DNA of 64,000 bases from Parcubacteria group bacterium. GTDB lineage: Bacteria; Patescibacteriota; Minisyncoccia; Moranbacterales; UBA2206. This document shows, one piece after another, positions 4,227-64,000 of the stretch. The stretch spans positions 35,493-99,492 of the forward strand of contig JBAZUU010000001.1 of the NCBI GenBank assembly GCA_041661275.1, read 5' to 3'. Positions within the stretch are counted from its first letter, which is position 1. Every line of letters begins with the position of its first letter. The notes beneath the pieces are model-generated. The model made no database searches, was not told the origin of the DNA, and worked only from the letters and a program-made list of their open reading frames with translations. A program made the translations under genes and the position numbers.

Positions 4227-5222
4227 ATGGCCAGTCAAATTTCTAACGGGGCGCGGCGCATCTTTTCCGGCATACAGCCGAGTGGAAACTTACATTTAGG
4301 CAATTATCTGGGCGCCATCAAAAATTGGGTCAAACTCCAGGATGAGTATGATTCTATTTTTTGCGTGGTTGATCTTCACGCCATCACCGTTCCGCAAGAC
4401 CCGGAGAAATTACGCCAGCAAACCTTAGAAGTGGCAAAGGTATATTTGGCGTCCGGAATAGATCCGGAAAAATGTTCATTGTTTGTTCAATCTCATGTTA
4501 GTGAACACACGGAATTGATGTGGATCCTAAATACTATTACAAAAATAGCCGAGCTGGAAAGGATGACTCAATTTAAAGATAAATCTGCCAAGTCCGGAGT
4601 GGACGCGGGACTCTTAAATTATCCCGTTCTTATGGCCGCTGATATTATTCTATACGACACAAATTTAGTTCCCGTCGGAAAAGATCAGTTGCAACATATT
4701 GAAATTACCAGAACACTGGCTAATCGTTTTAACAAAAAATTCGGTGATACTTTTGTGGTTCCTGAACCTTATATCACCAAAGAAGGCATGAGAATTATGG
4801 GCTTGGATGATCCAACAAAGAAAATGTCCAAATCCGCCGCGTCTGATTATAACTATATTGCCCTCACCGATGACGAAGAAACCGTACGAAGAAAAATCAA
4901 AAAAGCCGTCACTGATTCCGGATCAGAAATTGTTTATAGCGGAGATAGGCCTGCTCTGATGAATCTCATCAACATCTATTCCCTACTGTCCGATATGCCA
5001 ACCAAAGAAATCGAAGAAAAATTCAAAGACAAGGGTTACGCTGATTTTAAAGCCGATTTAGCTGATGTAATAGTAAATTTCCTAAAACCGTTGCAAGAAA
5101 AAATCGCCGATTTGTCAGACGAAAAAGTTTTGGAAATTCTGAAGGCTGGAGCCAAAAAAGTCCAGCCAATTGCCAAAGCAAAGTTGAACGAAGTAAAAAA
5201 GAAAATCGGTTTCATCCTGTAA
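4227..5222 (+). CDS. trpS: tryptophanyl-tRNA synthetase
   Basis: Class I HIGH-like motif (GNLHLGNYLG) and KMSKS are both present. Length is 331 aa. Confidence 0.9.
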   Translation: MASQISNGARRIFSGIQPSGNLHLGNYLGAIKNWVKLQDEYDSIFCVVDLHAITVPQDPEKLRQQTLEVAKVYLASGIDPEKCSLFVQSHVSEHTELMWILNTITKIAELERMTQFKDKSAKSGVDAGLLNYPVLMAADIILYDTNLVPVGKDQLQHIEITRTLANRFNKKFGDTFVVPEPYITKEGMRIMGLDDPTKKMSKSAASDYNYIALTDDEETVRRKIKKAVTDSGSEIVYSGDRPALMNLINIYSLLSDMPTKEIEEKFKDKGYADFKADLADVIVNFLKPLQEKIADLSDEKVLEILKAGAKKVQPIAKAKLNEVKKKIGFIL

Positions 5223-7900: not shown

Positions 7901-7930
7901 TATATTCGTATTAAATTCGTAATTCGTAAA
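7901..7930 (+). promoter_or_regulatory. TTCGTA-array motif (tatattcgta-N4-aattcgtaattcgta) immediately upstream of ychF
   Basis: Nearly identical 30-mer recurs at 10241-10270 upstream of rpsR. Confidence 0.4.
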
Positions 7931-7932
7931 GT

Positions 7933-9012
7933 ATGAAAATAGGAATAGTTGGCCTCCCCAATGTCGGGAAATCAACCCTTTTCAAAGCCCTGACTAAAAC
8001 GCCAGTGGATATTAATAATTATCCATTTTGCACTATTGAACCGAATGTTGGAATTGTTAAGGTACCCGACGAGAGGTTGGATAAGCTGGCTGAGATGTCT
8101 AAATCAAAAAAGGTGGTACCGGCTATCATTGAATTTGTGGATATCGCGGGACTAGTGAAAGGCGCTTCCACCGGAGAAGGATTGGGCAATAAATTTCTGG
8201 CCAACATCCATGAAGTGGACGCTATCGTCCATGTAGTTCGAGCCTTTCAAAATCCCAGTATTATTCACGTACATAATGAAATTAATCCCCTATCGGATAT
8301 TGAGGTGATAAATACGGAATTAATTTTGGCAGATCTAGAAACAGTCAAGAAAGTGAGAGTGCGTTTGGAAAAAGATGTCCGGGGGAACAAGAAAGGCGCG
8401 GATGTTCAACTGGCCATTCTTGAAAAGATACAGAAAACCTTAGAAAATGGAAATCTTGCCAATTCTCTGGTAGAGACGCCCCGTCGGGGCGTCTCTACGG
8501 AGCAATTGGATCTGTCAGAAGATAACACTAAAATTATTTACCGAGAATTATCCCTTCTTACTGCTAAACCTTTCATTTACGCCTATAATGTAAGCGATAT
8601 TTCGGAAAAATTATCAGACGATCTTGAAAATAAAAACCACGTGAAATTGGATATTAAGATAGAAGAAGAACTGATTGAAATGAGCGCGGAAGAAGCGTTG
8701 GAGTTGGAAATAAAGTCTAATTTAAACGAGCTTATCGTAAAAGCGTATTATACCCTCGGATTGATTACATTTCTCACGACCGGCGAAGACGAATCCCGCG
8801 CTTGGACTATACTGAAAGATTCCACCGCGCCTATTGCCGGCGCTGCTATCCACAATGATTTCAAGGACCGTTTCATCCGCGCCGAAGTCATCGCCTGGGA
8901 TAAACTCCTTGAAATCGGTTCCTGGTCAAAAGCGCGAGAACTGGGAAAACTGCAATTAGAGGGAAAAGAATATGTTGTGCAAGATGGTGATGTCATTGAA
9001 TTTAAGATATAG
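7933..9012 (+). CDS. ychF: ribosome-binding ATPase YchF (Obg-family GTPase)
   Basis: IGIVGLPNVGKSTLF P-loop. C-terminal TGS-like region. Length 359 aa. Confidence 0.9.
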   Translation: MKIGIVGLPNVGKSTLFKALTKTPVDINNYPFCTIEPNVGIVKVPDERLDKLAEMSKSKKVVPAIIEFVDIAGLVKGASTGEGLGNKFLANIHEVDAIVHVVRAFQNPSIIHVHNEINPLSDIEVINTELILADLETVKKVRVRLEKDVRGNKKGADVQLAILEKIQKTLENGNLANSLVETPRRGVSTEQLDLSEDNTKIIYRELSLLTAKPFIYAYNVSDISEKLSDDLENKNHVKLDIKIEEELIEMSAEEALELEIKSNLNELIVKAYYTLGLITFLTTGEDESRAWTILKDSTAPIAGAAIHNDFKDRFIRAEVIAWDKLLEIGSWSKARELGKLQLEGKEYVVQDGDVIEFKI

Positions 9013-9156
9013 CTATTGACTAATGATCAATTAGCTATTATACTTATTTTAATCTAGAAAGCCCATAGTTTTCTCGCCCCGACGTGCGTCGGGGATAAGA
9101 AAACACCATCCGCCATGGGACTTTCTATTGGCGGTTTAATCATTTATAATCAAACT

Positions 9157-9636
9157 ATGCGATACGAACTGTTTTATCTCATCGGTGCTTCCCGCGAAGC
9201 TGACGCTGAAAAAATCAAAGAAGACATCATGAAACTGGTTACCGAAGCCGGTGGTGTTTTCGAGGAGAAGGAAACCATAGAAAAACGAAGACTAGCCTAC
9301 CAGATCAAGCACGAAACCCATGGGATCTTCATTGCTCAAAGATTCGAGCTGGACACGGAAAAAATTCCGGAGTTGAGTAAAAAAATAAACCTCTACCCCA
9401 ACCTCACTCGATTCATAATCAGCAAGGCTAACGAACTACCGGAACTAAAAACTAAAGAGGAAAGAATAAGTGAATCAATGACCAGACCTGCGCCGGTAAA
9501 AGAAGTGGAAAAGAAAATCGAAACTCCAGCCAAAAAAGAAGAAGTAAAAGAAGACACTAAAAAAGAAGAGTCGAAAGAAAAGCCGGCCAGCGACGATGAT
9601 ATTGATAAAAAATTAGAAGAAATACTAAATATATAA
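9157..9636 (+). CDS. rpsF: 30S ribosomal protein S6 with lysine/acidic C-terminal tail
   Basis: MRYELFYLI... matches S6 N-termini. Start moved to the internal ATG at 9157 (the ORF track starts at 9115). Confidence 0.8.
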   Translation: MRYELFYLIGASREADAEKIKEDIMKLVTEAGGVFEEKETIEKRRLAYQIKHETHGIFIAQRFELDTEKIPELSKKINLYPNLTRFIISKANELPELKTKEERISESMTRPAPVKEVEKKIETPAKKEEVKEDTKKEESKEKPASDDDIDKKLEEILNI

Positions 9637-11590: not shown

Positions 11591-11985
11591 GGGGATGAAC
11601 TGGTTTCGACAGATTGTACATTTAAAATATGCAAGCCGGGCCGAATACCCGTAAAAATATTCAAAATGTTATAAGTGCAAACTTACTAACGAAGGCAAAA
11701 ACTGTATTCGCGCAAGCGTTTACTTCAAATTTTGCTTACGCTACAGCCTAATTAATTTTAGACAGTAGCCATCGAACTGTCGAAGTCTCATAGACAGAAC
11801 TTGGTGTCAAACATGAGAATAGCGCGGATTGCATTTCCTTGGCAATATGCGTAAAATAAACATAGGGATAAGTTGAAGTAATTTTTTCTATTTTTATCTT
11901 TAACTGAAATTACCAAATAGGATAAGCTTGTAGATTATTTTGAATGAATAATTTTGGACGCGAGTTCGATTCTCGCCATCTCCAC
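11591..11985 (+). ncRNA. ssrA: tmRNA (SsrA)
   Basis: 5' GGGGATGAACTGGTTTCGAC. 3' GGACGCGAGTTCGATTCTCGCCATCTCCA is the tRNA-like T-arm/acceptor. Internal tag ORF is ...NFAYATA followed by TAA. Confidence 0.8.
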
Positions 11986-45675: not shown

Positions 45676-45750
45676 TCCGGCGTAGCTCAATGGTAGAGCA
45701 GTTGACTGTTAATCAATTGGTTGTAGGTTCGAGTCCTACCGCCGGAGCCA
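45676..45750 (+). tRNA. tRNA-Asn (anticodon GTT), CCA encoded
   Basis: Acceptor stem tccggcg/cgccgga. D-arm agctcaatggtagagc. Anticodon loop ctGTTaa. T-arm gtagg-ttcgagt-cctac. Confidence 0.85.
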
Positions 45751-51897: not shown

Positions 51898-52665
51898 TCA
51901 TATAGAAAGGATGTTTGCCAGAGGAGACCATGTTTTTTTGGATTTGATCTCTTCTTCGTGAAAAACTCCACTCTTCCAGAAAACTTTGAAGGCTTTTCCT
52001 CCTTTCCTGAAATTTATAACTCGATAGACTTGGTCGACTATTTCCAGGGCGGAATAATCGCCAAGAGCAACGCCAATGTCGCCATATTCTCGCAGCATGC
52101 TTTTGAAAGCCGGCCTACGCCATTCACCCTCCGATTCGTAATGTGGGCAAAGAGCAAAAGGGAGAAATCCCAAGCCATCTACTTTGATGGGCATCCAGTT
52201 GCTTGGATCCCTGATGCGCAGAGAATCAGAGACACTCCATTTGGACCAGCAGATTGCTCCGGCAGAAAGCCCGGAAAGGACAGCGCCCCGTTCTCCGGCT
52301 TCGCGAAGCATTTCGCCGATGCCTCGCTTTTCCCATTCGCACATCATGAGAGCTGTGTCACCGCCGCCCACATAGATAATATCCGCCCGATTGATCTTTT
52401 TTTGGATCTGTCTGTCGGTCAGTCCTCCTTTCGAAAGTTTGAGGTAATCAAGCTTGCATCCCAAGCGCGTTCTATAGACCCTGTAAATTCCGTGGCAATA
52501 ATCGACATTATCACCGCTGGCCGTCGGGATAAAAAGAAAATTAGGCGAACGCGATTTTGCTATTCTCACCCTAGCCAGTTTGACGATCTCTCTATCTACC
52601 GATAGTGTTTGCGGCAGTCGACAAGGGATAGATATTTCTCCTCCACCAATAGCTACGATTTGCAT
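51898..52665 (-). CDS. S51 peptidase (cyanophycinase/peptidase E-like), GC-rich gene
   Basis: IYVGGGDTALMM and LSGLSAGAICW are S51 motifs. Confidence 0.65.
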   Translation of the reverse strand: MQIVAIGGGEISIPCRLPQTLSVDREIVKLARVRIAKSRSPNFLFIPTASGDNVDYCHGIYRVYRTRLGCKLDYLKLSKGGLTDRQIQKKINRADIIYVGGGDTALMMCEWEKRGIGEMLREAGERGAVLSGLSAGAICWSKWSVSDSLRIRDPSNWMPIKVDGLGFLPFALCPHYESEGEWRRPAFKSMLREYGDIGVALGDYSALEIVDQVYRVINFRKGGKAFKVFWKSGVFHEEEIKSKKTWSPLANILSI

Positions 52666-52739
52666 GATTATAGCTCCCGTGTATGAGTCTGTATAAAAGA
52701 ACGCGATTCTGTCAAATAAATGTTGACATACTATACTAT

Positions 52740-52800
52740 CACAAAACCAGCCCTAGGTCAATGGCTGGTTAGTTTTGGTAGTATTTTGCCCTATATAAGC
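52740..52800. repeat. 61-nt intergenic repeat copy E2
   Basis: See E1. Confidence 0.6.
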
Positions 52801-52804
52801 CTAT

Positions 52805-53575
52805 TTATGGATGGAACTCCATTGCCCATTTATCCTTTCCTTTCCAACTGTCAAAAACTTTGCCAAATCCCTCTTTTATCGCTAATTCTTCAACCATTTT
52901 TAGGAGTTCTTGCTGGGTTTCCAAATCGGCATTCTTCAATACTTTGGAAATTTTGTCTAACAGTTCTTTATTGCTTATTGGCAACTTTTCCAGCGGAGCA
53001 ACTTCTAGTTCTTTTGGCAGGTAGCCGTAAAATGGAGCCAGCCTTTTGTGCAAAGCAAAGAGAGTAATAATCAGATTAGGAATGGAGCTGGCAGATTCAA
53101 TGTGAGCACCCAAAAGATTACCGCTCCGAATACACTTCACTGACCGAAAAACACCGTTCAGATAGTCGTCTATTCTTTCTCCTGTAAATTTCTTCCACTC
53201 GTCTTCAGGTATGGTTCCTTTGGAATCAATCAAATTTTGAATTTCACCCGTTTTATCAATTATCGCCTTAACTCTCGCGAAATCATATCTATCCCAAGCA
53301 AAATCCGTTCCCCATTCGGCATACTCTCTAAATTCAGACAATGATTGAACTGATAAATCAATATCGGGATTGTCGATATTGGAATACTTGGTTTTATATT
53401 CCTCGGCGACTTCATCTTTTACAATTATTTTTATATCATAGTCGGACTTCCCGTTTTCAAATCCTTTTCCCCGCGAACCCTTGAGAAAAAGCCCGATGAT
53501 ATTGTCGTCATTTTTTGCTTCTTCTAAAATTTGATTGTATAAATTTTCCTTTTCCATAAGTTTTATTTTACGCAA
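52805..53575 (-). CDS. nucleotidyltransferase resembling aminoglycoside 6-adenylyltransferase (ANT(6)/AadK-like)
   Basis: LFLKGSRGKGFENGKSDYDIKIIVKD parallels the AadK N-terminal NTase block. Length 256 aa. Confidence 0.55.
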   Translation of the reverse strand: MRKIKLMEKENLYNQILEEAKNDDNIIGLFLKGSRGKGFENGKSDYDIKIIVKDEVAEEYKTKYSNIDNPDIDLSVQSLSEFREYAEWGTDFAWDRYDFARVKAIIDKTGEIQNLIDSKGTIPEDEWKKFTGERIDDYLNGVFRSVKCIRSGNLLGAHIESASSIPNLIITLFALHKRLAPFYGYLPKELEVAPLEKLPISNKELLDKISKVLKNADLETQQELLKMVEELAIKEGFGKVFDSWKGKDKWAMEFHP

Positions 53576-54360
53576 ACATAAAATATAGGCGACTTATAAC
53601 AATTGAAGTCTTTTGACATCGACCCCTCCATCGCCTCGGCGTCTTCCTTGGATAATTCTCCCATCCTTTTTCTCATTACTAATGTAAATCCCGATTTTGC
53701 GATTATTTCTTCCATTTCCTTTTGGCTGGTGAAATGAATAAATTGATATCTTTTCTTCCCATCAACACGATAATTTCTTTCAAAAAACCAATCGCCAAAT
53801 TCGAGCTCTTGAAATTTAAATCCAAGAGGTTTTAAAATATAAAACTTAAGCCATTGCTTGACCCAGAGATACAGATAACTGCCGGAGTAATATCTTTGAT
53901 GGGCGGTGAGGATAAAATGGGATCCGGGTTTCAATACCCGATGGATTTCTTTCAAGGCCTTCAAACGATTGGAATGTCCTGGAATTTGCACCCAGCCATT
54001 GTTGGCAAATATCGCCCCATCAAAATAGTTATCTTCAAACTCCAATTTAGTTGCGTCTCCCACTCTGAAATCCACACTGGTTCCTTTTTCCAGTGCTACC
54101 CTTTTTGCTGTTTCAATCATGCCTGGGGTCAGATCAACTCCAATGACATCAAATCCCTTTTCGGATAAGACAAAGGCAGTCCTTCCTGAACCACAACCGA
54201 TATCAAGAATGTGGGAATTAGGTTTGAAATATTTTTTGATTAAAATATCTTCACTTTTCCATAATCCCTTTTTGGCAATTCTCAAATATTGCTCCTGGGT
54301 ATTCTTAGACCCGAATTCATCGATGCTTTCTTTTTTAATTTTTTCTATTGAGTTTTTCAT
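53563..54360 (-). CDS. class I SAM-dependent methyltransferase
   Basis: HILDIGCGSGRTAFVLSEKGFDVIGVDLTPGMIE is motif I/II. Confidence 0.75.
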   Translation of the reverse strand: MKNSIEKIKKESIDEFGSKNTQEQYLRIAKKGLWKSEDILIKKYFKPNSHILDIGCGSGRTAFVLSEKGFDVIGVDLTPGMIETAKRVALEKGTSVDFRVGDATKLEFEDNYFDGAIFANNGWVQIPGHSNRLKALKEIHRVLKPGSHFILTAHQRYYSGSYLYLWVKQWLKFYILKPLGFKFQELEFGDWFFERNYRVDGKKRYQFIHFTSQKEMEEIIAKSGFTLVMRKRMGELSKEDAEAMEGSMSKDFNCYKSPIFYVCVK

Positions 54361-55841
54361 AGTTCTCTAATATTAAGTGATAATATATTTTTCTCTGCTT
54401 CAAGAATATCTTTCATCTGGAAACTTTCTTCGCCCCACAATAGAACTTCCACTGGGCCGATAAAATAATTTCGTTGAAGCATAAAGTCTTTTAAAACGTT
54501 CCTCTCCTTCTGTATTAGTGGACGAATAGATTCGTATGCCTGAATAAAAGATTTGATTAGGCTATAACTCTTATTTTTCTTTAATATGGACCAAGCCACA
54601 ACTGCGACATCGCTGATCAAATAAGAATAATGGAGGTCGTCGAAGTCCAAAATACCAACCAATTTTTCACCGACGAATAGTGTATTCATAATGGTGAAAT
54701 CCGAATGAATATAAGCGGCAGGCCATTGTCCATAAATGGGCTTAAAATCTTTTGCTCTTTCTAAAAATTTAATCACAGACTTATTTTTTAATTTCGAAAA
54801 ATCAATTTTTGCCAATAGTTCGTTTTCATATTTTGACACTGATTCGTTTCCATTCTTCTGTTTGATATATTTCTGACTAACCAAATGCATTTTAGCAAGT
54901 GCTATACCAAATTCTCTGGCGGTTGATTCAGAATATTTCTCGATATGTTGGCCTCCAATAAATTCCATTAGCAGACTTTTCCAAGCAACATCATTAATAT
55001 TAGTAACATTAGCTGCCTTCCCCAGATTATTAAAAATTATTTGAGGAACGGGCAATCCTTCTTCTCTAAGAAAATTGACGAATCTCGCCTCTTCTTCAAT
55101 CCACTCCAACGGTTCATCAATATTATTCGGATAAATTCTTAAAACATACTTTTTATCGGAAACTATTTTGATGCTAGTGTTTTCAACGCCATATGGAATG
55201 ACTTCCATTGAAAAGTTACTGATATTCCAATTGGTCAACATCAAACCAATATTTTCCTTCGTCGGATTTATTTGATTTTCAGGAGAAATTTTTACAATCG
55301 GCCGCGTCTGAAACTCCTCTTTGGTCAATTCCATCTTCACTGTGCCGCTTAAAATCCATTCGCCGTTATGAAAAACAGTCCTGTCGTTATTTATTAAGTC
55401 GGCTTGTTTAAACCCCATTTTTTTATAAAACCCAATCGCTCTTTCATGTAGTTCACTAGTATCAAGCGTAACATTATCCACGTTTAATGTCCTGAAAGCA
55501 TAATCCAAAGTTAGTCTCGTCGCTTCACTTGCTACGCCTGTTCCCCAATAGCTTTTATTTAAAATAAAAACACTAAATTCACTCTCATTTCCTTCTCTTA
55601 TGCTTGATAAGGAAGTATACCCGATAAAATTATCTTCCTTATCATAAATCTCAAAAACTGGCCCACTTTCAATTTCATCAAGCAAAGACTTAAGTTCATC
55701 AATATTTTTTAGTTCCAGGGCTTGTTTAGCAAAACTGAAATATTGTACCACTTCCAATTCTTTAAACCATTTCAAAAGTAAAGGATAATTTTCCTCTGCC
55801 AACCCATCATTGAGATAAACTTTTTCTCCCTGCAATGTCAT
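54357..55841 (-). CDS. fusion protein: N-terminal GNAT acetyltransferase (RimJ/L-like) plus C-terminal APH/homoserine-kinase-II-like phosphotransferase
   Basis: GNAT segment YWGTGVASEA...GFYKKMGF. Kinase segment HSDFTIMN (HxDxxxxN) and ILDFDD (DFD). Confidence 0.65.
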   Translation of the reverse strand: MTLQGEKVYLNDGLAEENYPLLLKWFKELEVVQYFSFAKQALELKNIDELKSLLDEIESGPVFEIYDKEDNFIGYTSLSSIREGNESEFSVFILNKSYWGTGVASEATRLTLDYAFRTLNVDNVTLDTSELHERAIGFYKKMGFKQADLINNDRTVFHNGEWILSGTVKMELTKEEFQTRPIVKISPENQINPTKENIGLMLTNWNISNFSMEVIPYGVENTSIKIVSDKKYVLRIYPNNIDEPLEWIEEEARFVNFLREEGLPVPQIIFNNLGKAANVTNINDVAWKSLLMEFIGGQHIEKYSESTAREFGIALAKMHLVSQKYIKQKNGNESVSKYENELLAKIDFSKLKNKSVIKFLERAKDFKPIYGQWPAAYIHSDFTIMNTLFVGEKLVGILDFDDLHYSYLISDVAVVAWSILKKNKSYSLIKSFIQAYESIRPLIQKERNVLKDFMLQRNYFIGPVEVLLWGEESFQMKDILEAEKNILSLNIREL

Positions 55842-55844
55842 TCC

Positions 55845-56435
55845 CTATATCAAAACCATATTCCCATCTTCGACGAAGATAGCTTGGTCATCAGTTAGTT
55901 TGATTACTGATCCTTCTTTTCGTTTTGCTTTAAACTCCTCAATCATTTTCTCTTCTATCGGAGTATAGTGCGGAGATACGATATATTTAACCAGATTAAG
56001 ACCAGCCAAATCATTGAGGTTAATGTCGTTTATATCACCGATTCCCGCCACTTCAATATCCGGACCGGGAATAATGCTTCCGGCACTGACACCCAGATAA
56101 AATTTCTCCCGTTTTACCGCGTTGATCAAGACCTTGTCCATACCAGTTTTTCTCATTCGATCAAGGATATAAAAAGTGTTGCCACCGCATACATAGTAAA
56201 TATCATACTCTTTCAGATTTACAAAATTATTTTCTTCCGAAATGTTTATTTTGTCATATCGCAATCCGATTTCCCCCAGCTCTTTATCATATTGCTCGAG
56301 CCACTGCCAATCACTTTCTTCTCTGATAGTAAAAATCAAACAAGCTTTCTTGTCACTAAGCGTATCGAATTGTGAAATGAAAAAATCTCGTACTTTTTTA
56401 TTTTCTAATCCTGTTGAGGTTAGTAATAATTTCAT
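55845..56435 (-). CDS. S51 peptidase E-like protein
   Basis: YYVCGGNTFYIL and LGVSAGSII. Confidence 0.65.
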   Translation of the reverse strand: MKLLLTSTGLENKKVRDFFISQFDTLSDKKACLIFTIREESDWQWLEQYDKELGEIGLRYDKINISEENNFVNLKEYDIYYVCGGNTFYILDRMRKTGMDKVLINAVKREKFYLGVSAGSIIPGPDIEVAGIGDINDINLNDLAGLNLVKYIVSPHYTPIEEKMIEEFKAKRKEGSVIKLTDDQAIFVEDGNMVLI

Positions 56436-56459
56436 ATTTTATAATTTTTTATTTTAAAA

Positions 56460-57389
56460 CTATTTCTCTATTATGTTTTTGGTCTTTTTGCAAGTTACTA
56501 TAGTATATGGAATTTGCCAAGCATATGGCTCTTCGTGATGAGTAAGTACGCCTTGCAATCCTTCAATGTTTTGCCGAATATACTCTTTCGCTTCTTTCAT
56601 CTGTTCTTCTGGGGCGTTGATACGCCGAACAAAGAATTCATCGAATGTTTCATAAAGAGTAGGGCCATCTGCGATTTCTTCAATTTTATCAAATATTTTT
56701 CTGTGCAAATCTATCCCCTCTTCTTTTCCACAAAAATTTACCCTTCTTTTCGCAACATCAAACAGTCCATTAAAGCAATTCGCTTGTTCTTGAGTGTCAT
56801 AAGAACAAAATTGGCTAACTAGAATTCCGCCGGGTTTCAATATTCGTTTAATTTCTTCCAATATCTTAGCTTGATATTTGGGCTCTACATACTGTAAAAC
56901 GCTACGCAAAATAACTAAATCGGCGGTTTCACTAGCTAATGGCGTTTCCATTAGACTAGCTTCAATTTTTTCAGCCTGTACTGAGCTTTGCTTCATTGCT
57001 ACGGCATTTGTGTCAATCATAACCAATCTAGCATCAGAACCATTTTTTCTAAATTTTTCACGCACATAATTTCCAAGTGTCCCCTGGCTCGATCCCGCAT
57101 CAACTATTGTCGCATTTTCCCTATCATATATTTCATTTGGAATATGTCGAGCAAAAATTTCACAATTTTCCTCACTTCCAAAAAAACCTTGGTATAACTC
57201 CTCCAAAGCTCTTGCCTTCCCCTCTCCTGCTCTTGTCGCCAATTCTATATCCTGTTTCATTCCAGATTCAACATTTTCACTCTCTTGCTTTTTTATAGAT
57301 GATTCTTTTTTGTGTTCGAAATTCATATTTTGATTATACACAGACGCTTCATTTTTTCCGATATCTTCAGATACAGGAAATTGACTCAC
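56460..57389 (-). CDS. class I SAM-dependent methyltransferase
   Basis: VDAGSSQGTL...ILKPGGILV. Confidence 0.65.
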   Translation of the reverse strand: MSQFPVSEDIGKNEASVYNQNMNFEHKKESSIKKQESENVESGMKQDIELATRAGEGKARALEELYQGFFGSEENCEIFARHIPNEIYDRENATIVDAGSSQGTLGNYVREKFRKNGSDARLVMIDTNAVAMKQSSVQAEKIEASLMETPLASETADLVILRSVLQYVEPKYQAKILEEIKRILKPGGILVSQFCSYDTQEQANCFNGLFDVAKRRVNFCGKEEGIDLHRKIFDKIEEIADGPTLYETFDEFFVRRINAPEEQMKEAKEYIRQNIEGLQGVLTHHEEPYAWQIPYTIVTCKKTKNIIEK

Positions 57390-57443
57390 TGCAATTTAAT
57401 TTATGGATAATTTAAATATCGTACCAATCTCGAGGAAATATTG

Positions 57444-58322
57444 TCAGGACTGAGATAATATCATTTTTAGTTTCTTTATTATCCTAGTCATGCCTTCTGA
57501 TTTTTTATTTTTTTGATAAAACCAAAACCAATTCATCATCGCTATAATAGTATCCTCCTTAATCTGGAAAAATAAATCATCATTTTTGGCACCATAATAA
57601 TTCAGAATATCTTTCAAAAACTGATCATTACTTTTTTTATTAAAATCAACCAAATCCATAAAATCCATCGCCGGTATGCCGAGCCCCGCTTCTGCCCAAT
57701 CCAAGATGCCGGTAATTATTTTCTTATCCGGATCCCAAAGAATGTTGTTGAAATATAAATCGCCGTGTATAATTGTTGCTGGATTTTCAAAATTACTAGG
57801 ATTATTGGCAATAGCTTTCAGCTTGGCGTTGAGAATCTTAAGCTCATCAGCACTCAAGTATTGTGCTATCAACTTGGGACAAGATCTATAATCACTTTTT
57901 CTCATCACTAAGTATCCAGTGTCGAAATTAATTTTTTTGTCTTTAAATCCGTGGAGTGCTTTTAAAAACAAGCCGAGCTGTTTTGCGATTTTGAGCCTTT
58001 CTTTCGGAGCAAGTTTTTCGATGTCAGATGGGCGAGGGTGTTTTCCAGGTATCTTTTTATAACCAATAAAACCATCGCCAAGGTATTTTGGTGCCGGCAC
58101 TGCCAGAGGAGACACCTTAGAAAATGAGACTAAGAAATCCAATCTTTTTTCCATTTTTTCTTTAGCGTCGTCGTTTCTGGGAAATCGAAAAATCCATTTT
58201 TCATTAACTTCAATAATCAGACTTTCCGTGCCTCTATTTACTGCCTTGTATGAATTGATCTTGAGACCTGTAGCCATTCTTATCTCTTCGATTCTTGCGG
58301 CGATTGATTTTTGCTTTGTCAT
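57444..58322 (-). CDS. aminoglycoside/choline-kinase-family phosphotransferase (APH-like)
   Basis: IIHGDLYFNNILW (HGDxxxxN) and GILDWAEAG. Confidence 0.7.
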   Translation of the reverse strand: MTKQKSIAARIEEIRMATGLKINSYKAVNRGTESLIIEVNEKWIFRFPRNDDAKEKMEKRLDFLVSFSKVSPLAVPAPKYLGDGFIGYKKIPGKHPRPSDIEKLAPKERLKIAKQLGLFLKALHGFKDKKINFDTGYLVMRKSDYRSCPKLIAQYLSADELKILNAKLKAIANNPSNFENPATIIHGDLYFNNILWDPDKKIITGILDWAEAGLGIPAMDFMDLVDFNKKSNDQFLKDILNYYGAKNDDLFFQIKEDTIIAMMNWFWFYQKNKKSEGMTRIIKKLKMILSQS

Positions 58323-58384
58323 AGTTTATCTAAGTTGATCTATGACCATTCTACCATAAACCGGCCATAATCCTATATGCGTAT

Positions 58385-60208
58385 CTACTTTTGCACAATA
58401 TTCTCCAGCCTTTCTTTTCCCATTATATGCAACTCCGATATAGCGCGAGTAAGCGCCACATAAAGAAGATCTTTGTTAATTCTCTTTTTCTCTTCAGCTA
58501 AATCAACATGCCCCTTATCTTGATAATCAGCAAACATTTCTTTGCTGACGCCCACAATAATAACAACGTCAAACTCCACTCCCTGCGCTTCATTCATCGT
58601 CATTGCATGCACTTTGTTGTTATCGCTAAAAGTACTTTTGAACTGAGTCAAATAATTCTCTTCTTTGGCTAATATTCCGACACTGGAAAAATTATTTGTC
58701 GCAATGATTTTTTTGATTTGTTCGATTTCTTCATCCTTGCTTTGAAAAATATATTCTTCCACCGCTTTTCCTTCCTTTAGCTGATCGAGTATTTCAATGT
58801 CATATCCCAATTTTTTGATATATCGCAAAATGTTTTTTGTGTTCCGATAAACTTTTTGCAGCGTTACCTTTCGTTCCTCTTCCATTTTTTCCTCGATATC
58901 TTCCCAATGGCGGATCGTTCCCAGCTTCACTTGCTGAGCCATATCTCCGACATAAACCGTTGATTGGCTTTTCTCGCTGATACAAGATTTTATAAGCCGC
59001 AATTGATCCGGCAAATAGTTTTGGAATTCGTCGATTACCGCTAAGGAATATTCCAAGGGTACCGCTTCCTTCTTCTTTTTTATGGATCCGTTCCTTTGCT
59101 GGATATATCGATCTCTAATCACACTTAAACCCTCGCTGCTCGCGTAAGATATTTTCAGAAGTAAGGTTAAGTCAATTCTGTCATACGCCCTCTCTTCCTT
59201 TTGACGCTGAAACAAAGTTTTTTTCTCGTTGTTCAAATACTTTCCATAAACTTTTTCAAGTATTGAGTGCGAATCTGATTTTGCATATGTCTGCTTGGAT
59301 AAATTATTCAAAGCTTTCAATTTGTAAAACTCATATAAGTCCTTCTCGTACTCACTATCTCCGTATCTTTCCGTAAAATTACCATCCATGCCAAGAATCT
59401 CAAACGCCCATTCGGAAAAAGTAACGATTTTGACATCATCGATACCGAGCTCCGGCAGAAGATGGGAGAAATACTCCTTGGTGCCGTTATCCTGAACGAA
59501 GACTATGATGGATTTGCTGGTGTAGATGTCGGCCAAGTCCGGAGATTGAACAAGATAGGCCACCCGATGAAGAGCCAGGGTGGTCTTGCCGCTTCCAGCC
59601 GGACCGGAGATCAAAAACGATCCTTTATGATAAGCGCGAATTACCTGATCCTGCGCCTTTTCCATTTGAGCCACAATTTCTGGAAGAATGAAGCCTGTTT
59701 TTTTGGTGGAAAAATATTCTTCATATATCAGTTCCCGCGGCTCGGATATCGTTTCCGAAGACAGAAATTTTATTTTTCTATCAACAATCATAAATTGATC
59801 TTTCCTGAGCAGTTTTACTTTCTGTATCATTCCGTCCGGACGCTTATAGCTCACGTCGCCCGGCTTTTCAAACCGAATCACTGAAGCCGGAGTTATCCAG
59901 GAATAAATATCCCTGTCGCTGAATCCAAACTTGCCAAAGTAGATTCTGTTTTCTTTTTCTTCCCCGCTAAACACAATATCGCAGCGCACAAAATAGGGCG
60001 AGCCTTTTAAATGCTTCAGCTCATTGATTCTTTTTTCATTGTTGGCGATGATCGTACTCTCTACCATCTGGTCGGCGTAGGAAAGCGTGCTGAACCTCTC
60101 CTTGCTTAATTTGAGTGACTTCTCCACTTTAGCAAGACCATTTTTCAGGCTCATACAAACAGACGCCAAATGTTCCCTGGCGAGGGATAGAATTTTTTCT
60201 TTGTCCAT
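58385..60208 (-). CDS. UvrD/Rep-family SF1 DNA helicase (HelD-like)
   Basis: Walker A GPAGSGKTTLALHRVAYL, VYVGDMAQQV, ALTRAISEL. Confidence 0.7.
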   Translation of the reverse strand: MDKEKILSLAREHLASVCMSLKNGLAKVEKSLKLSKERFSTLSYADQMVESTIIANNEKRINELKHLKGSPYFVRCDIVFSGEEKENRIYFGKFGFSDRDIYSWITPASVIRFEKPGDVSYKRPDGMIQKVKLLRKDQFMIVDRKIKFLSSETISEPRELIYEEYFSTKKTGFILPEIVAQMEKAQDQVIRAYHKGSFLISGPAGSGKTTLALHRVAYLVQSPDLADIYTSKSIIVFVQDNGTKEYFSHLLPELGIDDVKIVTFSEWAFEILGMDGNFTERYGDSEYEKDLYEFYKLKALNNLSKQTYAKSDSHSILEKVYGKYLNNEKKTLFQRQKEERAYDRIDLTLLLKISYASSEGLSVIRDRYIQQRNGSIKKKKEAVPLEYSLAVIDEFQNYLPDQLRLIKSCISEKSQSTVYVGDMAQQVKLGTIRHWEDIEEKMEEERKVTLQKVYRNTKNILRYIKKLGYDIEILDQLKEGKAVEEYIFQSKDEEIEQIKKIIATNNFSSVGILAKEENYLTQFKSTFSDNNKVHAMTMNEAQGVEFDVVIIVGVSKEMFADYQDKGHVDLAEEKKRINKDLLYVALTRAISELHIMGKERLENIVQK

Positions 60209-60509
60209 AGTTAATAAAAAAACGACTTATAGTATAAGCTGGAAATTGCGTTTTTGGATACAATTTGACCCTGCTTATGTAAGTCGGTTTTCGCTAGAAG
60301 TAGGTAATATTGGCTGGTTTCAAGTGTTTTTGTATTTTCAGTATATCACATATTGGCGTTTTGGCAAATTAACGGCTGCTTATTAGTCTTCTAAAGATAA
60401 GAGTTGACAATAATCTGACAGCCTACACTTAGCTCAGCTCTTGCGTTAATGTCGATTATACTATATAATTTAACTGGAAAGGGACTTAAACACCCCTTTC
60501 AGACAATAT

Positions 60510-61127
60510 ATGAACAAAATACCAACAAAAGGTGAATATTTAGAGGTCTTATTAAGATCTCCCAAAACCGTCTTTTCTACAAAAGATGCGGCTTTATTAT
60601 GGAACGAGACCGATAATGCCGTGGTTACTGACCGATTAAAAAAATATGTTAAAGCTGGAAAGTTAGTTCGACCATATCGCGGTTTGTATGCCAAAGATAA
60701 AAATTATAATCGCTTTGAAATTGCAACGCGAATCTATACTCCTTCTTACATCAGTTTCGAAACTGTTTTGACGAGAGCTGGAATCAACTTTCAATTCTAT
60801 AGCAATATTTTTGTGGCTTCATACGTAACTCGAGATATTCAAGCTGGCGATCAGTCGATTTCATTTGTCCGAATGAAAGACTATGTTTTAAGTAACACGG
60901 TCGGCATTGAACATTCGGACGGAATTGCCATGGCTACCAAAGAGCGCGCGTTCTTGGACAGAATTTATGTGAGCAAAGATTATCATTTTGATAATTTAAA
61001 CGCCTTGGATTGGGACAAGGTGTTTGAGATTTTGCCGATCTATAACAATAAGCGAATGGAAAAGAAGGTTGATGAGTATTTCGATCACTACAAAAGCGAT
61101 CAACCAATTAAACCAGAAAAAATATGA
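60510..61127 (+). CDS. AbiEi-like antitoxin/transcriptional regulator (type IV TA, abortive infection)
   Basis: N-terminal wHTH-like region. 4-nt overlap with the downstream AbiEii gene. Confidence 0.6.
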   Translation: MNKIPTKGEYLEVLLRSPKTVFSTKDAALLWNETDNAVVTDRLKKYVKAGKLVRPYRGLYAKDKNYNRFEIATRIYTPSYISFETVLTRAGINFQFYSNIFVASYVTRDIQAGDQSISFVRMKDYVLSNTVGIEHSDGIAMATKERAFLDRIYVSKDYHFDNLNALDWDKVFEILPIYNNKRMEKKVDEYFDHYKSDQPIKPEKI

Positions 61128-61819
61128 AATTAGATTATTCAAAACACAAAAATATCTTACTGCAGATTTTAAAGGACATTTATTCCGATACGTCTATTGC
61201 TCCCCATTTAGGATTTAAGGGTGGAACGGCCGCTTTATTGTTCTATGGATTAACTCGTGATTCGGTTGATTTGGATTTGGACTTGCTGAACGAAGAAAAA
61301 GAAATAGAAGTATTTGAAAAAATACAAAAAATTATCGCCAATTATGGGACGGTCGTCGATTCGAGAATTAAGAAATTCAATTTGCTTAACGTTCTTTCGT
61401 ATGCGCCCGGTGCGCAAAAAATAAAAGTCGAGGTCAACCGAAGACAGTTTGGCTCGAAATATGATCTTAAAACTTTGCTTGGCATATCAATGCTGGTCAT
61501 GATTGAGGAAGATATGTTTGCCCATAAGCTGATGGCCATGCATGAACGGATCGGCAAAACAAGTCGGGATGTTTATGATGTTTGGTTTTTCTTGGAAAAC
61601 CGCTGGCCCATTAACAAAGAAATTGTCGAACAACGTTCCGGTAAAACTTTCAAAAAAGTGCTGAAAATGACGGCTGAACAGTTGGAAAAGCTGGATAATA
61701 AACACGTATTGGATGGACTGGGTGATTTCCTGACAGATCCACAAAAAGATTGGGCTCGCGCCAAACTGAAAAGTGAAACGATATTTTTACTAAAAGCTCG
61801 AGCGGAGAGTGAAAAATAA
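61124..61819 (+). CDS. AbiEii/AbiGii-family nucleotidyltransferase toxin (DUF1814)
   Basis: LGFKGGTAALLFYGLTRDSVDLDLDL is the family signature. Confidence 0.75.
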   Translation: MKLDYSKHKNILLQILKDIYSDTSIAPHLGFKGGTAALLFYGLTRDSVDLDLDLLNEEKEIEVFEKIQKIIANYGTVVDSRIKKFNLLNVLSYAPGAQKIKVEVNRRQFGSKYDLKTLLGISMLVMIEEDMFAHKLMAMHERIGKTSRDVYDVWFFLENRWPINKEIVEQRSGKTFKKVLKMTAEQLEKLDNKHVLDGLGDFLTDPQKDWARAKLKSETIFLLKARAESEK

Positions 61820-61877
61820 TAAAGGCAGATGCGTTTGGAATTAAACTCGATGATTTTAATGAAATAAAAATACTGAT

Positions 61878-63266
61878 ATGGAAAAACAAATATTTACAAT
61901 CGGATATACAATACCGACATTTGATGAAAATTATGTTGATTTTTACGATGAGTTATCATTAATGGATGCTGATATTTTATTGATTTCGCCCGACTCGTTA
62001 GAGCCAAGGGGAGATTGGGTAAGTTTCACTACAAGCGATGGAGGTTGTTATAATGTTGCGGCATCAAAAACATACAAACAGAAGGTATTTACTTTAAGAA
62101 AAGAGATCGAAGACTATTTGAATGCAGGGAAGAATGTTTTTGTGCTTTTAACTAAAACAGAAGAATATCAACTCGCAAGCGGTGTATCTTCGGAGAGGAA
62201 AGGTCAAAATACTTTTCATACTGAGATGTATGGCAATTATAATTTCTTGCCTACTAAAATTGGCACATTAACATCAGTTTCCGGAAAGCATGTTGAATTT
62301 TCTGGAAACCCAGTATTTAGTGATTTTTATCAAAAATTTAAGGAAAATTTGGAATACCAACTTTATATAGAGAACCTAAGTGGAGCCCAGATAATTTTTA
62401 CAGGCAAAGATAAGACGAAAGTTCTTGGAGCAATTTACAAGGTAGGAAATGGACACCTCGTGGTATTACCTTTTATAAAATACAATAGGAAGAAATTTAT
62501 CACATATAAGAAAAAAGAAGATAAGAGTTACTGGACAAATGAGGCGATAAAATTTGGAAAATCGTTAGTTAAATCATTTGTTGATATAGATAAGGCTCTC
62601 CAAAAGGGCGGAGACAGAACCCCTCCTCCTGATTGGACAGGTGAAGTGAATTTTCAGTTAGCCCAAGAGCAAGTTTTACAGGAAGATATCAAGCAGAAAT
62701 CAAATGAAATCGAAAATCTTATTTTGCAAAAAAATGAGTTGCTATCAAAAATAGATCAAGAGGTTCAGTTAAGAGATTTGCTTTTTGAGAAAGGAAAAAC
62801 ACTTGAAAATGCGATTAATTTGGCACTGGAAGTTTTGGGATATAAGGCGGAAAATTACAATGACGGAAATCTTGAGATAGATCATGTTATCACCTCACCG
62901 GAAGGAGACCGTTTTATTGGTGAGGCTGAAGGCAAAGATACTTCTGCTATAAATATTGATAAGTTTAGACAATTATCAACGAACATTCAGGAAGATTTAC
63001 AAAGAGAAGAAGTTGAAAATCCTGCAGTGGGTATTTTATTCGGGAATGGCTTCCGACTTACAAAGCCAACTGAAAGAGCGGAGCAGTTCACGACTAAATG
63101 TATCAATACAGCAAAATCGTCAAATTGCGTTTTGATTAGGACCGTCGACCTTTTTAGGGTTGCAAAATATACAAAAGAATCAAGGAATAAAATTTATGCA
63201 AAAAATTGCCGAGATACAATAAATGATAGTCTTGGTAAAATTGTCGAGTTTCCGCCATTGCCTTAA
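61878..63266 (+). CDS. unknown 462-aa protein: N-terminal alpha/beta domain, coiled coil, C-terminal region with a possible PD-(D/E)xK nuclease motif
   Basis: EIDHVITSPEGDRFIGEAEGKD shows D...E.K spacing. Sits directly downstream of abiEi/Eii. Confidence 0.4.
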   Translation: MEKQIFTIGYTIPTFDENYVDFYDELSLMDADILLISPDSLEPRGDWVSFTTSDGGCYNVAASKTYKQKVFTLRKEIEDYLNAGKNVFVLLTKTEEYQLASGVSSERKGQNTFHTEMYGNYNFLPTKIGTLTSVSGKHVEFSGNPVFSDFYQKFKENLEYQLYIENLSGAQIIFTGKDKTKVLGAIYKVGNGHLVVLPFIKYNRKKFITYKKKEDKSYWTNEAIKFGKSLVKSFVDIDKALQKGGDRTPPPDWTGEVNFQLAQEQVLQEDIKQKSNEIENLILQKNELLSKIDQEVQLRDLLFEKGKTLENAINLALEVLGYKAENYNDGNLEIDHVITSPEGDRFIGEAEGKDTSAINIDKFRQLSTNIQEDLQREEVENPAVGILFGNGFRLTKPTERAEQFTTKCINTAKSSNCVLIRTVDLFRVAKYTKESRNKIYAKNCRDTINDSLGKIVEFPPLP

Positions 63267-63306
63267 ACATAAAAATCCAAGCCATGGCCAATATTGGCCT
63301 AAAAAT

Positions 63307-63588
63307 ATGGAGAAAGAAACAAAACAACAAATTCTTGAACGGCAAAAAGAAATTGAGCAGGAAATCATGGAAATGCTCAAGGAAACAGGGAGTGCTTTTG
63401 CGCTGAAAGATATTAAAGACGCGATTTTCAACGAAGCAGAGCGGGATGATTTTACACATGTTGTCGCTATGTTCGATCGAGGCGGCGACGCTTCGGAATT
63501 GGAGAATGTGCTTGAACTCGTAACCGATGCCTGGAATTATTTTCCGCACAAAGCCCTGGGTGGCATTTCCCCAGCCGAAAAGGCGTAA
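63307..63588 (+). CDS. small hypothetical protein (start placed at the internal Met MEKETKQQ)
   Basis: The ORF overlaps the 3' end of the previous gene in another frame. Confidence 0.3.
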   Translation: MEKETKQQILERQKEIEQEIMEMLKETGSAFALKDIKDAIFNEAERDDFTHVVAMFDRGGDASELENVLELVTDAWNYFPHKALGGISPAEKA

Positions 63589-63612
63589 GCATATCAGTAA
63601 AAAGGAAGAGAT

Positions 63613-64000
63613 ATGACAACATTTGTTAAGATATTTAGAACTATTTTAACCGCAGACAAAGATGCCAGTCGCAAGGCGGCACGCGAGGTGCGGAAATTTT
63701 TGTATCGATCGCATAGCAACAGGAATAATTATGATGATATTAAAAATATCATCAACAACGCGCCAATTGAGTATTCTGAAATTTCCGAGGATTGGCGGCA
63801 AGAAAATTTTGTCATAGCTGTGTCGGTTATTTATTATTTGCACGACAAAGAAAACCGGCCGGATTTTCTTTTCCCATGGCTGTTTCATCTGCTTTGGCAT
63901 AAAAATGGCAACATCCGCCATGCGGCGGTGAGAATGATCGAGCATGAGCTCGGACCACTCACCTATCACCTTCGCTGTCCTGGCAAAAAATCTTCATTTC
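63613..64000 (+). CDS. hypothetical protein, 5' partial only (runs off the window)
   Basis: AAAGGAAGAG RBS then ATG at 63613. Open frame to the window end. Preferred over the antisense ORF at 63646..63969. Confidence 0.4.
   Translation, partial: MTTFVKIFRTILTADKDASRKAAREVRKFLYRSHSNRNNYDDIKNIINNAPIEYSEISEDWRQENFVIAVSVIYYLHDKENRPDFLFPWLFHLLWHKNGNIRHAAVRMIEHELGPLTYHLRCPGKKSSF

Follow-up and report, generated by a model that had tools for sequence, protein, structure and literature searches.

An AbiE operon and an adjoining gene for a predicted PD-(D/E)xK nuclease with an amidotransferase-like domain in a Parcubacteria genome

The window analysed here is a 64,000-nt stretch of a Parcubacteria-group genome (contig JBAZUU010000001.1), and near its end lies an abiEi-abiEii gene pair followed by a 462-aa open reading frame (ORF), named ORF3 here. 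The region probably consists of two independent modules that are neighbours by chance, namely a canonical AbiE operon and a solitary predicted nuclease gene. Module 1 (60441-61819) would be a type IV toxin-antitoxin and abortive-infection operon of the usual AbiE kind, and module 2 (61878-63266) would be a single gene drawn from a large, unannotated and horizontally mobile family. The positions of the three genes given in a preliminary description of this DNA were exact for all three on the plus strand, and the 4-nt overlap of abiEi and abiEii (ATGA) that it claimed was seen in both the ORF table and the raw sequence. The spacer between abiEii and ORF3 is 58 nt long, and a terminator scan predicted none within it. 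Related contigs that carry abiE or ORF3 homologues are labelled L followed by a number. The three genes are as follows:
60510-61127, plus strand, abiEi, 205 aa, by family the antitoxin and transcriptional repressor of a type IV toxin-antitoxin or abortive-infection system
61124-61819, plus strand, abiEii, 231 aa, by family the DUF1814 nucleotidyltransferase toxin
61878-63266, plus strand, ORF3, 462 aa

The relation between the modules was assessed in 80 abiE loci, of which 46 have at least 1.4 kb of downstream sequence, and in the 92 ORF3 loci first sampled (82 distinct). ORF3 was present in none of the 80 close abiE loci, and homologues of the window AbiEi, AbiEii, HelD-like helicase or 93-aa gene (the last two described below) were found within about 10 kb in none of the 92 ORF3 loci. 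In a single later locus, L175, an AbiE pair and an ORF3 homologue do occur together, the pair lying 3.6 kb upstream; it is 26-27% identical to that of the window and is separated from ORF3 by genes for Fic, a methyltransferase and GmrSD. The preliminary description had implied that abiEi, abiEii and ORF3 form one three-gene defence system with the nuclease as an AbiE-controlled effector, a reading that the common strand, the short spacer without a predicted terminator and the L175 arrangement would favour, but which is effectively refuted by the missing co-occurrence and is left with the slightest of chances, the L175 pair being distant and set apart by three genes and another locus, L099, carrying the abiE block without ORF3. 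As a point of caution, being next to a toxin-antitoxin pair in a single genome was here no sign of a functional link.

The L099 locus shows how the arrangement in the window differs from that of a close relative. Its abiE block has 80% DNA identity to window 60450-61819, and similarity drops directly past the abiEii stop codon and returns about 10 nt before the next ATG, which in L099 begins a homologue (L099:5353-5649) of the window 93-aa gene with 66% amino acid identity, 47 nt after the abiEii stop. Because L099 joins abiEii directly to this gene, the ~1.48-kb segment with ORF3 is, as judged from the alignment, an insertion/deletion difference inside a common abiE-plus-93-aa block. ORF3 would then owe its place after abiEii to insertion into a small island of accessory genes, or to shuffling of such an island. 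Since the 58-nt spacer has no predicted terminator, ORF3 may be co-transcribed with abiE; in this genome it may be read through from the abiE promoter and so come incidentally under AbiEi control. The features that follow ORF3 are:
63286-63299, no strand assigned, perfect 14-bp palindrome GGCCAATATTGGCC, 7 nt upstream of the 93-aa gene and placed like the dyad upstream of abiEi
63307-63588, plus strand, 93-aa gene, homologue in L099, no significant match in Pfam, PADLOC, NCBIfam or PHROG

No homologue of the 93-aa gene was found in the other 78 abiE loci, save a weak partial match upstream in L168. The palindrome is not followed by a T-run, received no terminator call and is missing from the matching spacer of L099. 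A weak paralogue-like match to the 93-aa gene occurs at window 9097-9270 (31% identity, E 0.006), and an ORF without a Pfam match starts at 63613 and continues past the end of the window (at least 129 aa).

The window abiE pair was compared with family models and with studied AbiE systems. AbiEi matches the PADLOC AbiEi model PDLC02255 at 4.1e-57 over residues 9-191, which is nearly its full length, and its membership rests on this subfamily model because the scores against Pfam AbiEi_4 (18.7 bits) and NCBIfam TAA_AbiEi (4e-08) are under their cutoffs. AbiEii matches Pfam AbiEii PF08843 at 1.3e-16 (61.7 bits, cutoff 22.5) and PADLOC PDLC02324 at 1.6e-76 over residues 5-227, and by eye, against the definitions of Dy et al. 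2014 (PMC3985639), its motifs I/II read KGG-x14-DLD with a family-specific R45, its motif III KLMAMHER and its motif IV RDVYD. On all of these sequence-level features the pair is judged an ordinary member of AbiE, in agreement with its earlier identification. At least 473 relatives of AbiEi were found in metagenome contigs, the best 80 at 73-90% identity, and abiEii comes after abiEi in all 79 loci with sequence at that position; the L097 contig stops 19 nt past abiEi.

Like the AbiE systems of S. agalactiae and Lactococcus (Dy et al. 2014, PMC3985639), the window operon is bicistronic with the antitoxin first, encodes an AbiEi-family antitoxin and a DUF1814 nucleotidyltransferase toxin with motifs I-IV, and has an inverted-repeat element at the promoter; the 4-nt gene overlap is identical to that of S. 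agalactiae. It differs from them in its repeat arrangement, the studied promoters having their own and the window operon a single 31-bp dyad downstream of the -10 box, and in belonging to a Patescibacteria-specific subfamily that is found in hundreds of metagenome contigs and is known here from sequence alone. By analogy with the S. agalactiae and M. tuberculosis proteins, AbiEi would repress its own promoter, and it would neutralise the AbiEii nucleotidyltransferase toxin. The elements upstream of abiEi are:
60441-60469, plus strand, promoter-like element of the abiE operon read from the sequence, with -35 TTGCGT at 60441-60446, a 17-nt spacer and -10 TATAAT at 60464-60469
60473-60503, no strand assigned, 31-bp dyad-symmetric element with consensus ACTGGAA-N17-TTCCAGT and a conserved TTTAA centre, candidate AbiEi operator or hairpin of the 5' untranslated region (5'-UTR)

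The promoter-like element was not listed by a generic promoter scan. Of the 80 related abiE upstream regions, most have a CTTG...N...(C)ATATAAT arrangement at an equal distance, and the architecture common to them reads CTTG..., 17 nt, (C)ATATAAT, the 31-bp dyad, 6-9 nt and ATG. From this arrangement 60441-60469 is inferred to act as the abiE promoter. The window copy of the dyad, ACTGGAAAGGGACTTAAACACCCCTTTCAGA, matches the consensus pattern at 60473-60503 with 2 mismatches, and at its core are perfect 7-bp arms (GAAAGGG at 60477-60483 and CCCTTTC at 60494-60500) with a 10-nt spacer. The preliminary description had rightly noted a hairpin before abiEi; it had placed it at 60486-60508 abutting the start codon, whereas the arms lie at the positions just given and end 9 nt before the ATG. 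The 7-bp inverted repeat by itself is not beyond chance, because 11 inverted repeats of 7 nt or more occur in the 322-nt intergenic region and the window RNA of the hairpin folds at -9.4 kcal/mol with a z-score of only -2.4, and its significance comes from conservation in related loci only.

That conservation was measured in 58 distinct homologous upstream regions, whose core was aligned gap-free, at 13 symmetric positions and against 500 shuffles. Paired cells made up 79% across the 13 positions and 24-51% when the partner was slid by 1-3 columns; double-change cells numbered 94, compared with 51 in the shuffles, and the covariation score was 0.298, compared with 0.165 (neither observed value was reached in any of the 500 shuffles). 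The inner positions alternate among AU, GC and UA. AbiEi proteins are known to bind and autoregulate through inverted repeats in their promoters (PMC7319586; also PMC3985639). Because the dyad is conserved and covarying, and because such autoregulation is published, the conserved 31-bp dyad is likely the AbiEi operator, to which AbiEi would bind between the -10 box and the start codon. The suggestion that the hairpin is a candidate autorepressor operator is upheld to the extent that it forms the core of a conserved, covarying dyad in the right place.

An alternative, which is considered unlikely, is that the dyad is a 5'-UTR RNA hairpin acting on translation or stability and not a DNA operator. 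The dyad lies downstream of the -10 box and is probably transcribed, its inner arms covary, the window RNA folds as described above, and in the GGG/CCC subclass the inner stem lies one position off the outer dyad axis, which suits a bulged hairpin. Against this, the outer arms and the central TTTAA are kept in sequence beyond what pairing alone would need, RNAalifold found no consensus hairpin in the related dyads, an Rfam search of window 58000-64000 at E<=1 gave no match, symmetric operators of dimeric or cooperative repressors covary too, and AbiEi binding to inverted repeats in promoters is documented (PMC7319586). Under the operator reading, this abiE subfamily, with a well-defined 31-bp dyad and covarying arms, would be a natural operator-variant series for AbiEi specificity.

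ORF3, the second module, is on record with its exact protein sequence as a hypothetical protein of a Parcubacteria-group metagenome-assembled genome. An AlphaFold2 model made on a 39-sequence alignment (mean predicted local distance difference test score, pLDDT, 88) divides the protein into three parts:
61878-62612, plus strand, N-domain, residues 1-245, class-I-glutamine-amidotransferase-like (flavodoxin-like) alpha/beta, no catalytic triad
62613-62783, plus strand, hinge and helix, residues 246-302, a TPPPxW hinge and a 40-residue helix at 262-301, from model and conservation
62784-63266, plus strand, nuclease domain, residues 303-462, PD-(D/E)xK (restriction-endonuclease fold)

The C-terminal domain of the model has the alpha-beta-beta-beta-alpha-beta core fold of PD-(D/E)xK enzymes and in structural comparison is nearest to Mrr/FokI/LlaBIII-type enzymes. 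Conservation in the family is highest at its motifs EIDHV (aa 333-337) and GEAEGK (aa 348-353). Among 36 diverse relatives (30-46% identity), D335, E349, E351, K362 and Q365 are present in all 36 and E310 in 35, and residue 353 varies (28 K, 7 R, 1 T); the conserved nuclease residues sit on the expected helix-strand-strand-helix elements of the model. Because the acidic residues are conserved and so placed, the metal-binding acidic core appears intact and the nuclease is probably active. The model and the structural matches support the restriction-endonuclease-like fold that had been read from these two motifs, and they also support the proposed N-terminal alpha/beta domain and the long helix (aa 262-301) taken earlier for a coiled coil; the glutamine-amidotransferase-like nature of the N-domain had not been recognised.

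The N-domain of the model has the flavodoxin-like GATase1 fold, and its structural relatives are 3rht (score 10.6), STM3548 (10.5), ThuA-like (9.8) and IFT52-N (9.6) structures as well as the middle domains of GH42 and GH164 enzymes. Because residues 1-245 hold no invariant or near-invariant Cys or His among the 36 diverse members (C57 is present in 7), the N-domain is, by its sequence, not an amidotransferase. A long beta-hairpin insertion occupies residues 96-119, and the domain is mildly basic, with an isoelectric point (pI) of 8.3. Its conserved positions (D30, D32, S63, G84, P125, G136, G192 and P198) and the TPPPxW hinge, of which P251 and W253 are invariant, point to some conserved role, and the domain is presumed to be a sensor or regulatory domain. 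The hinge at 245-249 is of low confidence in the model, the hinge and helix region (residues 246-302) is acidic with a pI of 4.3, and the helix at 262-301 is a probable coiled coil. Foldseek agreed on both folds and found no solved chain that spans both domains, and a BFVD search gave matches to the nuclease domain only.

Sequence searches placed ORF3 in no known family. No meaningful match was obtained in Pfam (E<=0.1), NCBIfam, PHROGs, PADLOC (E<=0.1) or PDB sequences, 35 diverse relatives gave none in Pfam at E<=0.01, and a profile of the 36 relatives gave none in the PDB. Among the named PD-(D/E)xK families of Pfam (Mrr_cat, NERD, DUF4263, NucS and others) the sequence matches none, and weak matches to UpxZ, SMC and ribosomal protein L1 were dismissed as coiled-coil or chance. 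By the modelled fold and the catalytic residues ORF3 is assigned to the PD-(D/E)xK superfamily, as a member of no named family. The statement that such a domain combination is common in single-gene defence proteins could not be sustained, ORF3 matching no PADLOC, Pfam or NCBIfam model.

Compared with the FokI cleavage domain and the Mrr/NucS/AF1548-type nucleases, ORF3 lacks a sequence match to any Pfam nuclease family, its domains are parted by the long helix and the invariant TPPPxW hinge, and the canonical PD-(D/E)xK lysine is partly Arg, with an invariant Lys and Gln on the following helix. In place of the DNA-recognition domain of FokI there is a glutamine-amidotransferase-like module, and unlike FokI-like Type II/IIS enzymes ORF3 has no methyltransferase partner. 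Shedu (SduA) likewise works as one protein, a defence nuclease whose N-terminal regulatory domain varies, whereas ORF3 has no DUF4263 or PADLOC Shedu match, has a different N-domain and a coiled-coil linker, and its defence activity is a prediction. None of the non-catalytic amidotransferase-like proteins (ThuA-like, STM3548, GH42 middle domain, IFT52-N/GIFT) is fused to a nuclease, and ORF3 differs from them in its 96-119 hairpin insertion and its own conserved residues. In function ORF3 would come closest to single-chain nucleases of the FokI or Shedu type that have a regulatory N-domain, and is a member of neither. The domain combination was found in no library or solved structure searched here, and the literature searched, including the DefensePredictor and metagenomic-selection papers, yielded no description of an amidotransferase-like, restriction endonuclease and defence architecture, nor of WP_049126869.1, an ORF3 homologue described below.

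The family to which ORF3 belongs is large. A word-indexed search gave 566 matches, many of them 70-87% identical across differing Patescibacteria lineages, and clustering at 50% identity gave at least 1098 clusters with E<1e-3; 393 of these fall below 1e-30, nearly all of them ~460 aa long. It occurs in at least 235 GTDB species of many bacterial phyla (Patescibacteria, Bacteroidota, Proteobacteria, Planctomycetota, Acidobacteriota, Verrucomicrobiota and Cyanobacteria) and of two archaeal lineages. A homologue recorded as "hypothetical protein" (WP_049126869.1) is carried by 7 Enterobacter IncF plasmids, flanked by insertion sequence (IS) elements and toxin-antitoxin genes. No homologue was found in the phage collection searched, and none in an E. 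coli collection, where a search at the DNA level only makes this weak evidence. Because ratios of non-synonymous to synonymous substitution (dN/dS) against 12 close relatives were 0.05-0.14 overall and similar in all three regions of the protein, ORF3 appears to be a functional gene under purifying selection; diversifying selection was ruled out by values of about 0.1 in every domain. The G+C content of ORF3 (0.347, compared with 0.395 for the window) differs too little to be used as a compositional anomaly.

DNA similarity of ORF3 to its relatives starts at the ATG and stops at the stop codon. A transposon-like cassette was considered and rejected, as similarity ends at the ends of the coding sequence and terminal inverted repeats beyond chance were found only in L005 (21-bp perfect repeats at about 7916-7936 and 9443-9463) and L021 (14-bp repeats at about 610-623 and 2067-2080), which have the common sequence AATGAACAAATTT(TATTTTCG); no comparable flanking repeats occur in the window or in the other sampled ORF3 loci. 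In nine otherwise AT-rich loci (L001, L013, L014, L015, L017, L020, L005, L007 and L051), a G+C-rich hairpin-forming non-coding sequence lies in the 100 nt that follow the ORF3 stop, with a motif cccgcccgcattcct common to L001, L014, L015 and L017 and a motif cattcaccc..acccct common to L005, L007 and L051. These sequences have no Rfam match at gathering thresholds, an Rfam search over eight related loci gave tRNAs only, and they may be repetitive extragenic palindrome (REP)-like elements or terminators.

The neighbours of ORF3 were clustered by all-against-all BLASTP, four on each side, in the 82 distinct loci. No partner family recurs in more than 4 loci and no recurrent cognate methyltransferase was found, N6_N4 methylases making up 2 of the 79 upstream neighbours. 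In the clade that contains the window ORF3, the contexts with Pfam- or record-annotated neighbours include the following:
L004: EcoRI-like methylase, GmrSD/HNH, ORF3, transposase, RhuM
L018: homologues of the two L004 genes upstream of ORF3 in the same order, one extra ORF before ORF3, by similarity clustering only
L174: helix-turn-helix (HTH) protein, EcoRI-like methylase, GmrSD, ORF3
L175: distant AbiE pair, Fic, EcoRI-like methylase, GmrSD/HNH, ORF3
L177: integrase, HerA-like, C5-methylase, HipA, HIRAN, ORF3
L176: Phage_CRI, ORF3, HNH, MazG, NERD
L001: tRNA, large serine recombinase, HTH, EamA, ORF3, GIY-YIG
L093, a plasmid: IS elements and toxin-antitoxin systems
L005 and L010: plain housekeeping neighbours

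About 7-8 of the 11 annotated contexts of this clade, counted with no background control, hold restriction-modification, toxin-antitoxin, abortive-infection or mobile-element genes; as had been expected, homologues lie among defence and mobile-element genes at several loci. A collinear trio of an EcoRI-like adenine methylase, GmrSD (DUF262, with or without HNH) and ORF3 is present at L004:298-3889, L174:2358-6655 and L175:4821-8419, and at L018:317-5736 it is taken from similarity to L004 only, with the extra ORF before ORF3. The ORF3 copies of these loci are 71-84% identical to the window protein and lie on Patescibacteria-type contigs, and the trio could be one island lineage or a functional grouping. 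Family-wide, the 221 neighbours include Fic (3), HNH (3), type I S subunits (2), DNA methylases (at least 3), Mrr_cat (2), AAA_21/AriA-like (2) and transposases (2).

At L001:4903-6637 a tRNA gene (4903-4987) abuts an ORF for a serine recombinase with Resolvase, Recombinase and Zn_ribbon_recom domains, ~1.4 kb upstream of the HTH-EamA-ORF3 genes, which suggests that this ORF3 homologue rides an integrated island. Small GIY-YIG genes (~90 aa) lie within a few kb of ORF3 at L001:9632-9904, L010:7494-7766, L175:12793-13071 and L005:2508-2858; such genes may simply be abundant in candidate phyla radiation (CPR) genomes.

From these results there is about an even chance that ORF3 is an autonomous nuclease directed against mobile genetic elements, a reading favoured because of the suggestive context, the patchy horizontal spread, the carriage on plasmids and the absence of a methyltransferase partner. 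ORF3 would be an autonomous Mg2+-dependent DNA endonuclease whose helix 262-301 would dimerise the protein and so pair two cleavage domains; as with the FokI cleavage domain, cutting of duplex DNA would take a pair of catalytic domains, and the dead amidotransferase-like N-domain would gate or target cleavage. Acting on its own, ORF3 would restrict phages and plasmids or defend the cell against them, in a Type IV-like or trigger-activated manner because no cognate methyltransferase travels with it. As a large family with a predicted, probably active nuclease domain, yet annotated only as "hypothetical", ORF3 is a candidate for a new single-gene defence or restriction system.

Several points weigh against this account of the two modules. 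The PADLOC-DB v2.0.0 models that recovered AbiEi and AbiEii gave ORF3 no known-defence match (0 families, E<=0.1). The immediate neighbours of ORF3 family-wide are mostly metabolic or housekeeping singletons, as at L005 and L010, with defence genes a minority whose enrichment is unquantified without a matched control. The active-site assignment is provisional, since catalysis may depend on the invariant K362 of the next helix and not on the canonical ExK residue K353; the dimerisation, the DNA substrate and the role of the N-domain are predictions. For the operon, the dyad could work as an RNA hairpin and not as a protein operator, and both mismatches of the window copy fall in its right arm; for the junction of the modules, the segment with ORF3 may be either an insertion in the window or a deletion in L099.

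It is doubtful that ORF3 is a nuclease of DNA repair or recombination, or one concerned with maintenance or integration of a mobile element, and not a defence gene. The patchy, horizontally transferred distribution, with 70-87% identity across CPR lineages and presence on plasmids, is atypical for core repair; the window and the other sampled loci, L005 and L021 apart, have no flanking inverted repeats, and there are no phage copies and no recombinase-type partner. A role as a core repair enzyme is less likely than that of a nuclease against mobile genetic elements.

A specific sub-case of the defence reading, and one given rather a small probability, is that ORF3 is a modification-dependent (Type IV) restriction endonuclease whose GIFT-like N-domain reads a modification, for example a sugar-modified base. 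It would account for the solitary state of the nuclease and the lack of a cognate methyltransferase in 82 loci, for a nuclease domain nearest to Mrr/FokI/LlaBIII-type enzymes, for an N-domain whose relatives include accessory domains of carbohydrate enzymes (GH42, GH164) and IFT52-N, and for repeated adjacency to GmrSD-type Type IV enzymes. Recognition of sugar-modified DNA by the N-domain is an attractive, if speculative, idea because of this kinship to carbohydrate-enzyme domains and IFT52/GIFT and because of the GmrSD adjacency. Against it, a glutamine-amidotransferase-like fold is not known from any modified-base reader, the pI of the N-domain (8.3) is only mildly basic, Pfam Mrr_cat gives no match, and the GmrSD adjacency may reflect a single island lineage.

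Within the reading of ORF3 as an anti-mobile-element nuclease, it is tentatively proposed that ORF3 founds a new and widespread family of stand-alone immune nucleases, in which a dead GIFT-like domain senses modified, possibly glycosylated, DNA or a phage protein and licenses FokI-like cleavage through a coiled-coil dimer. If true, this would be a new sensor-effector architecture, and ORF3 would be among the few defence genes that spread readily in genome-reduced Patescibacteria.

Upstream of the abiE operon, on the opposite strand, the window carries the following:
58385-60208, minus strand, HelD-like superfamily-1 helicase, divergent from abiE and not part of the abiE/ORF3 unit
51898-60208, minus strand, resistance-like run with two S51 peptidases, a Pol-beta/streptomycin-adenylyltransferase-like nucleotidyltransferase, two S-adenosylmethionine (SAM) methyltransferases, a GNAT-APH fusion, an APH kinase and the HelD/HelR-like helicase

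The helicase matches NCBIfam HelD_BACSU at 1.4e-43 (under the equivalog cutoff) and HelR at 4.8e-20, as well as Pfam UvrD-helicase and UvrD_C, and its best match is to HelD/HelR-type RNA-polymerase recycling motors. No homologue of it was found near the 80 abiE loci or the 92 ORF3 loci first sampled. The preliminary description was correct in that a helicase with Pfam UvrD domains lies just upstream; this helicase is, however, HelD-like, on the opposite strand and part of the resistance-like run. HelR-type proteins are linked to rifamycin resistance. Because the helicase ends a minus-strand run of antibiotic-modifying-type genes, it is assigned by gene content to the resistance-like cluster and gives no support for a defence island. 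One report describes resistance-type genes as abundant in CPR (10.64898/2026.07.13.738296), and a resistance-like island in a Parcubacteria genome would fit such reports. Elsewhere in the window, ARAGORN placed a transfer-messenger RNA (tmRNA) gene at 11591-11985 and a tRNA-Asn gene at 45676-45750, neither of which adjoins abiE or ORF3.

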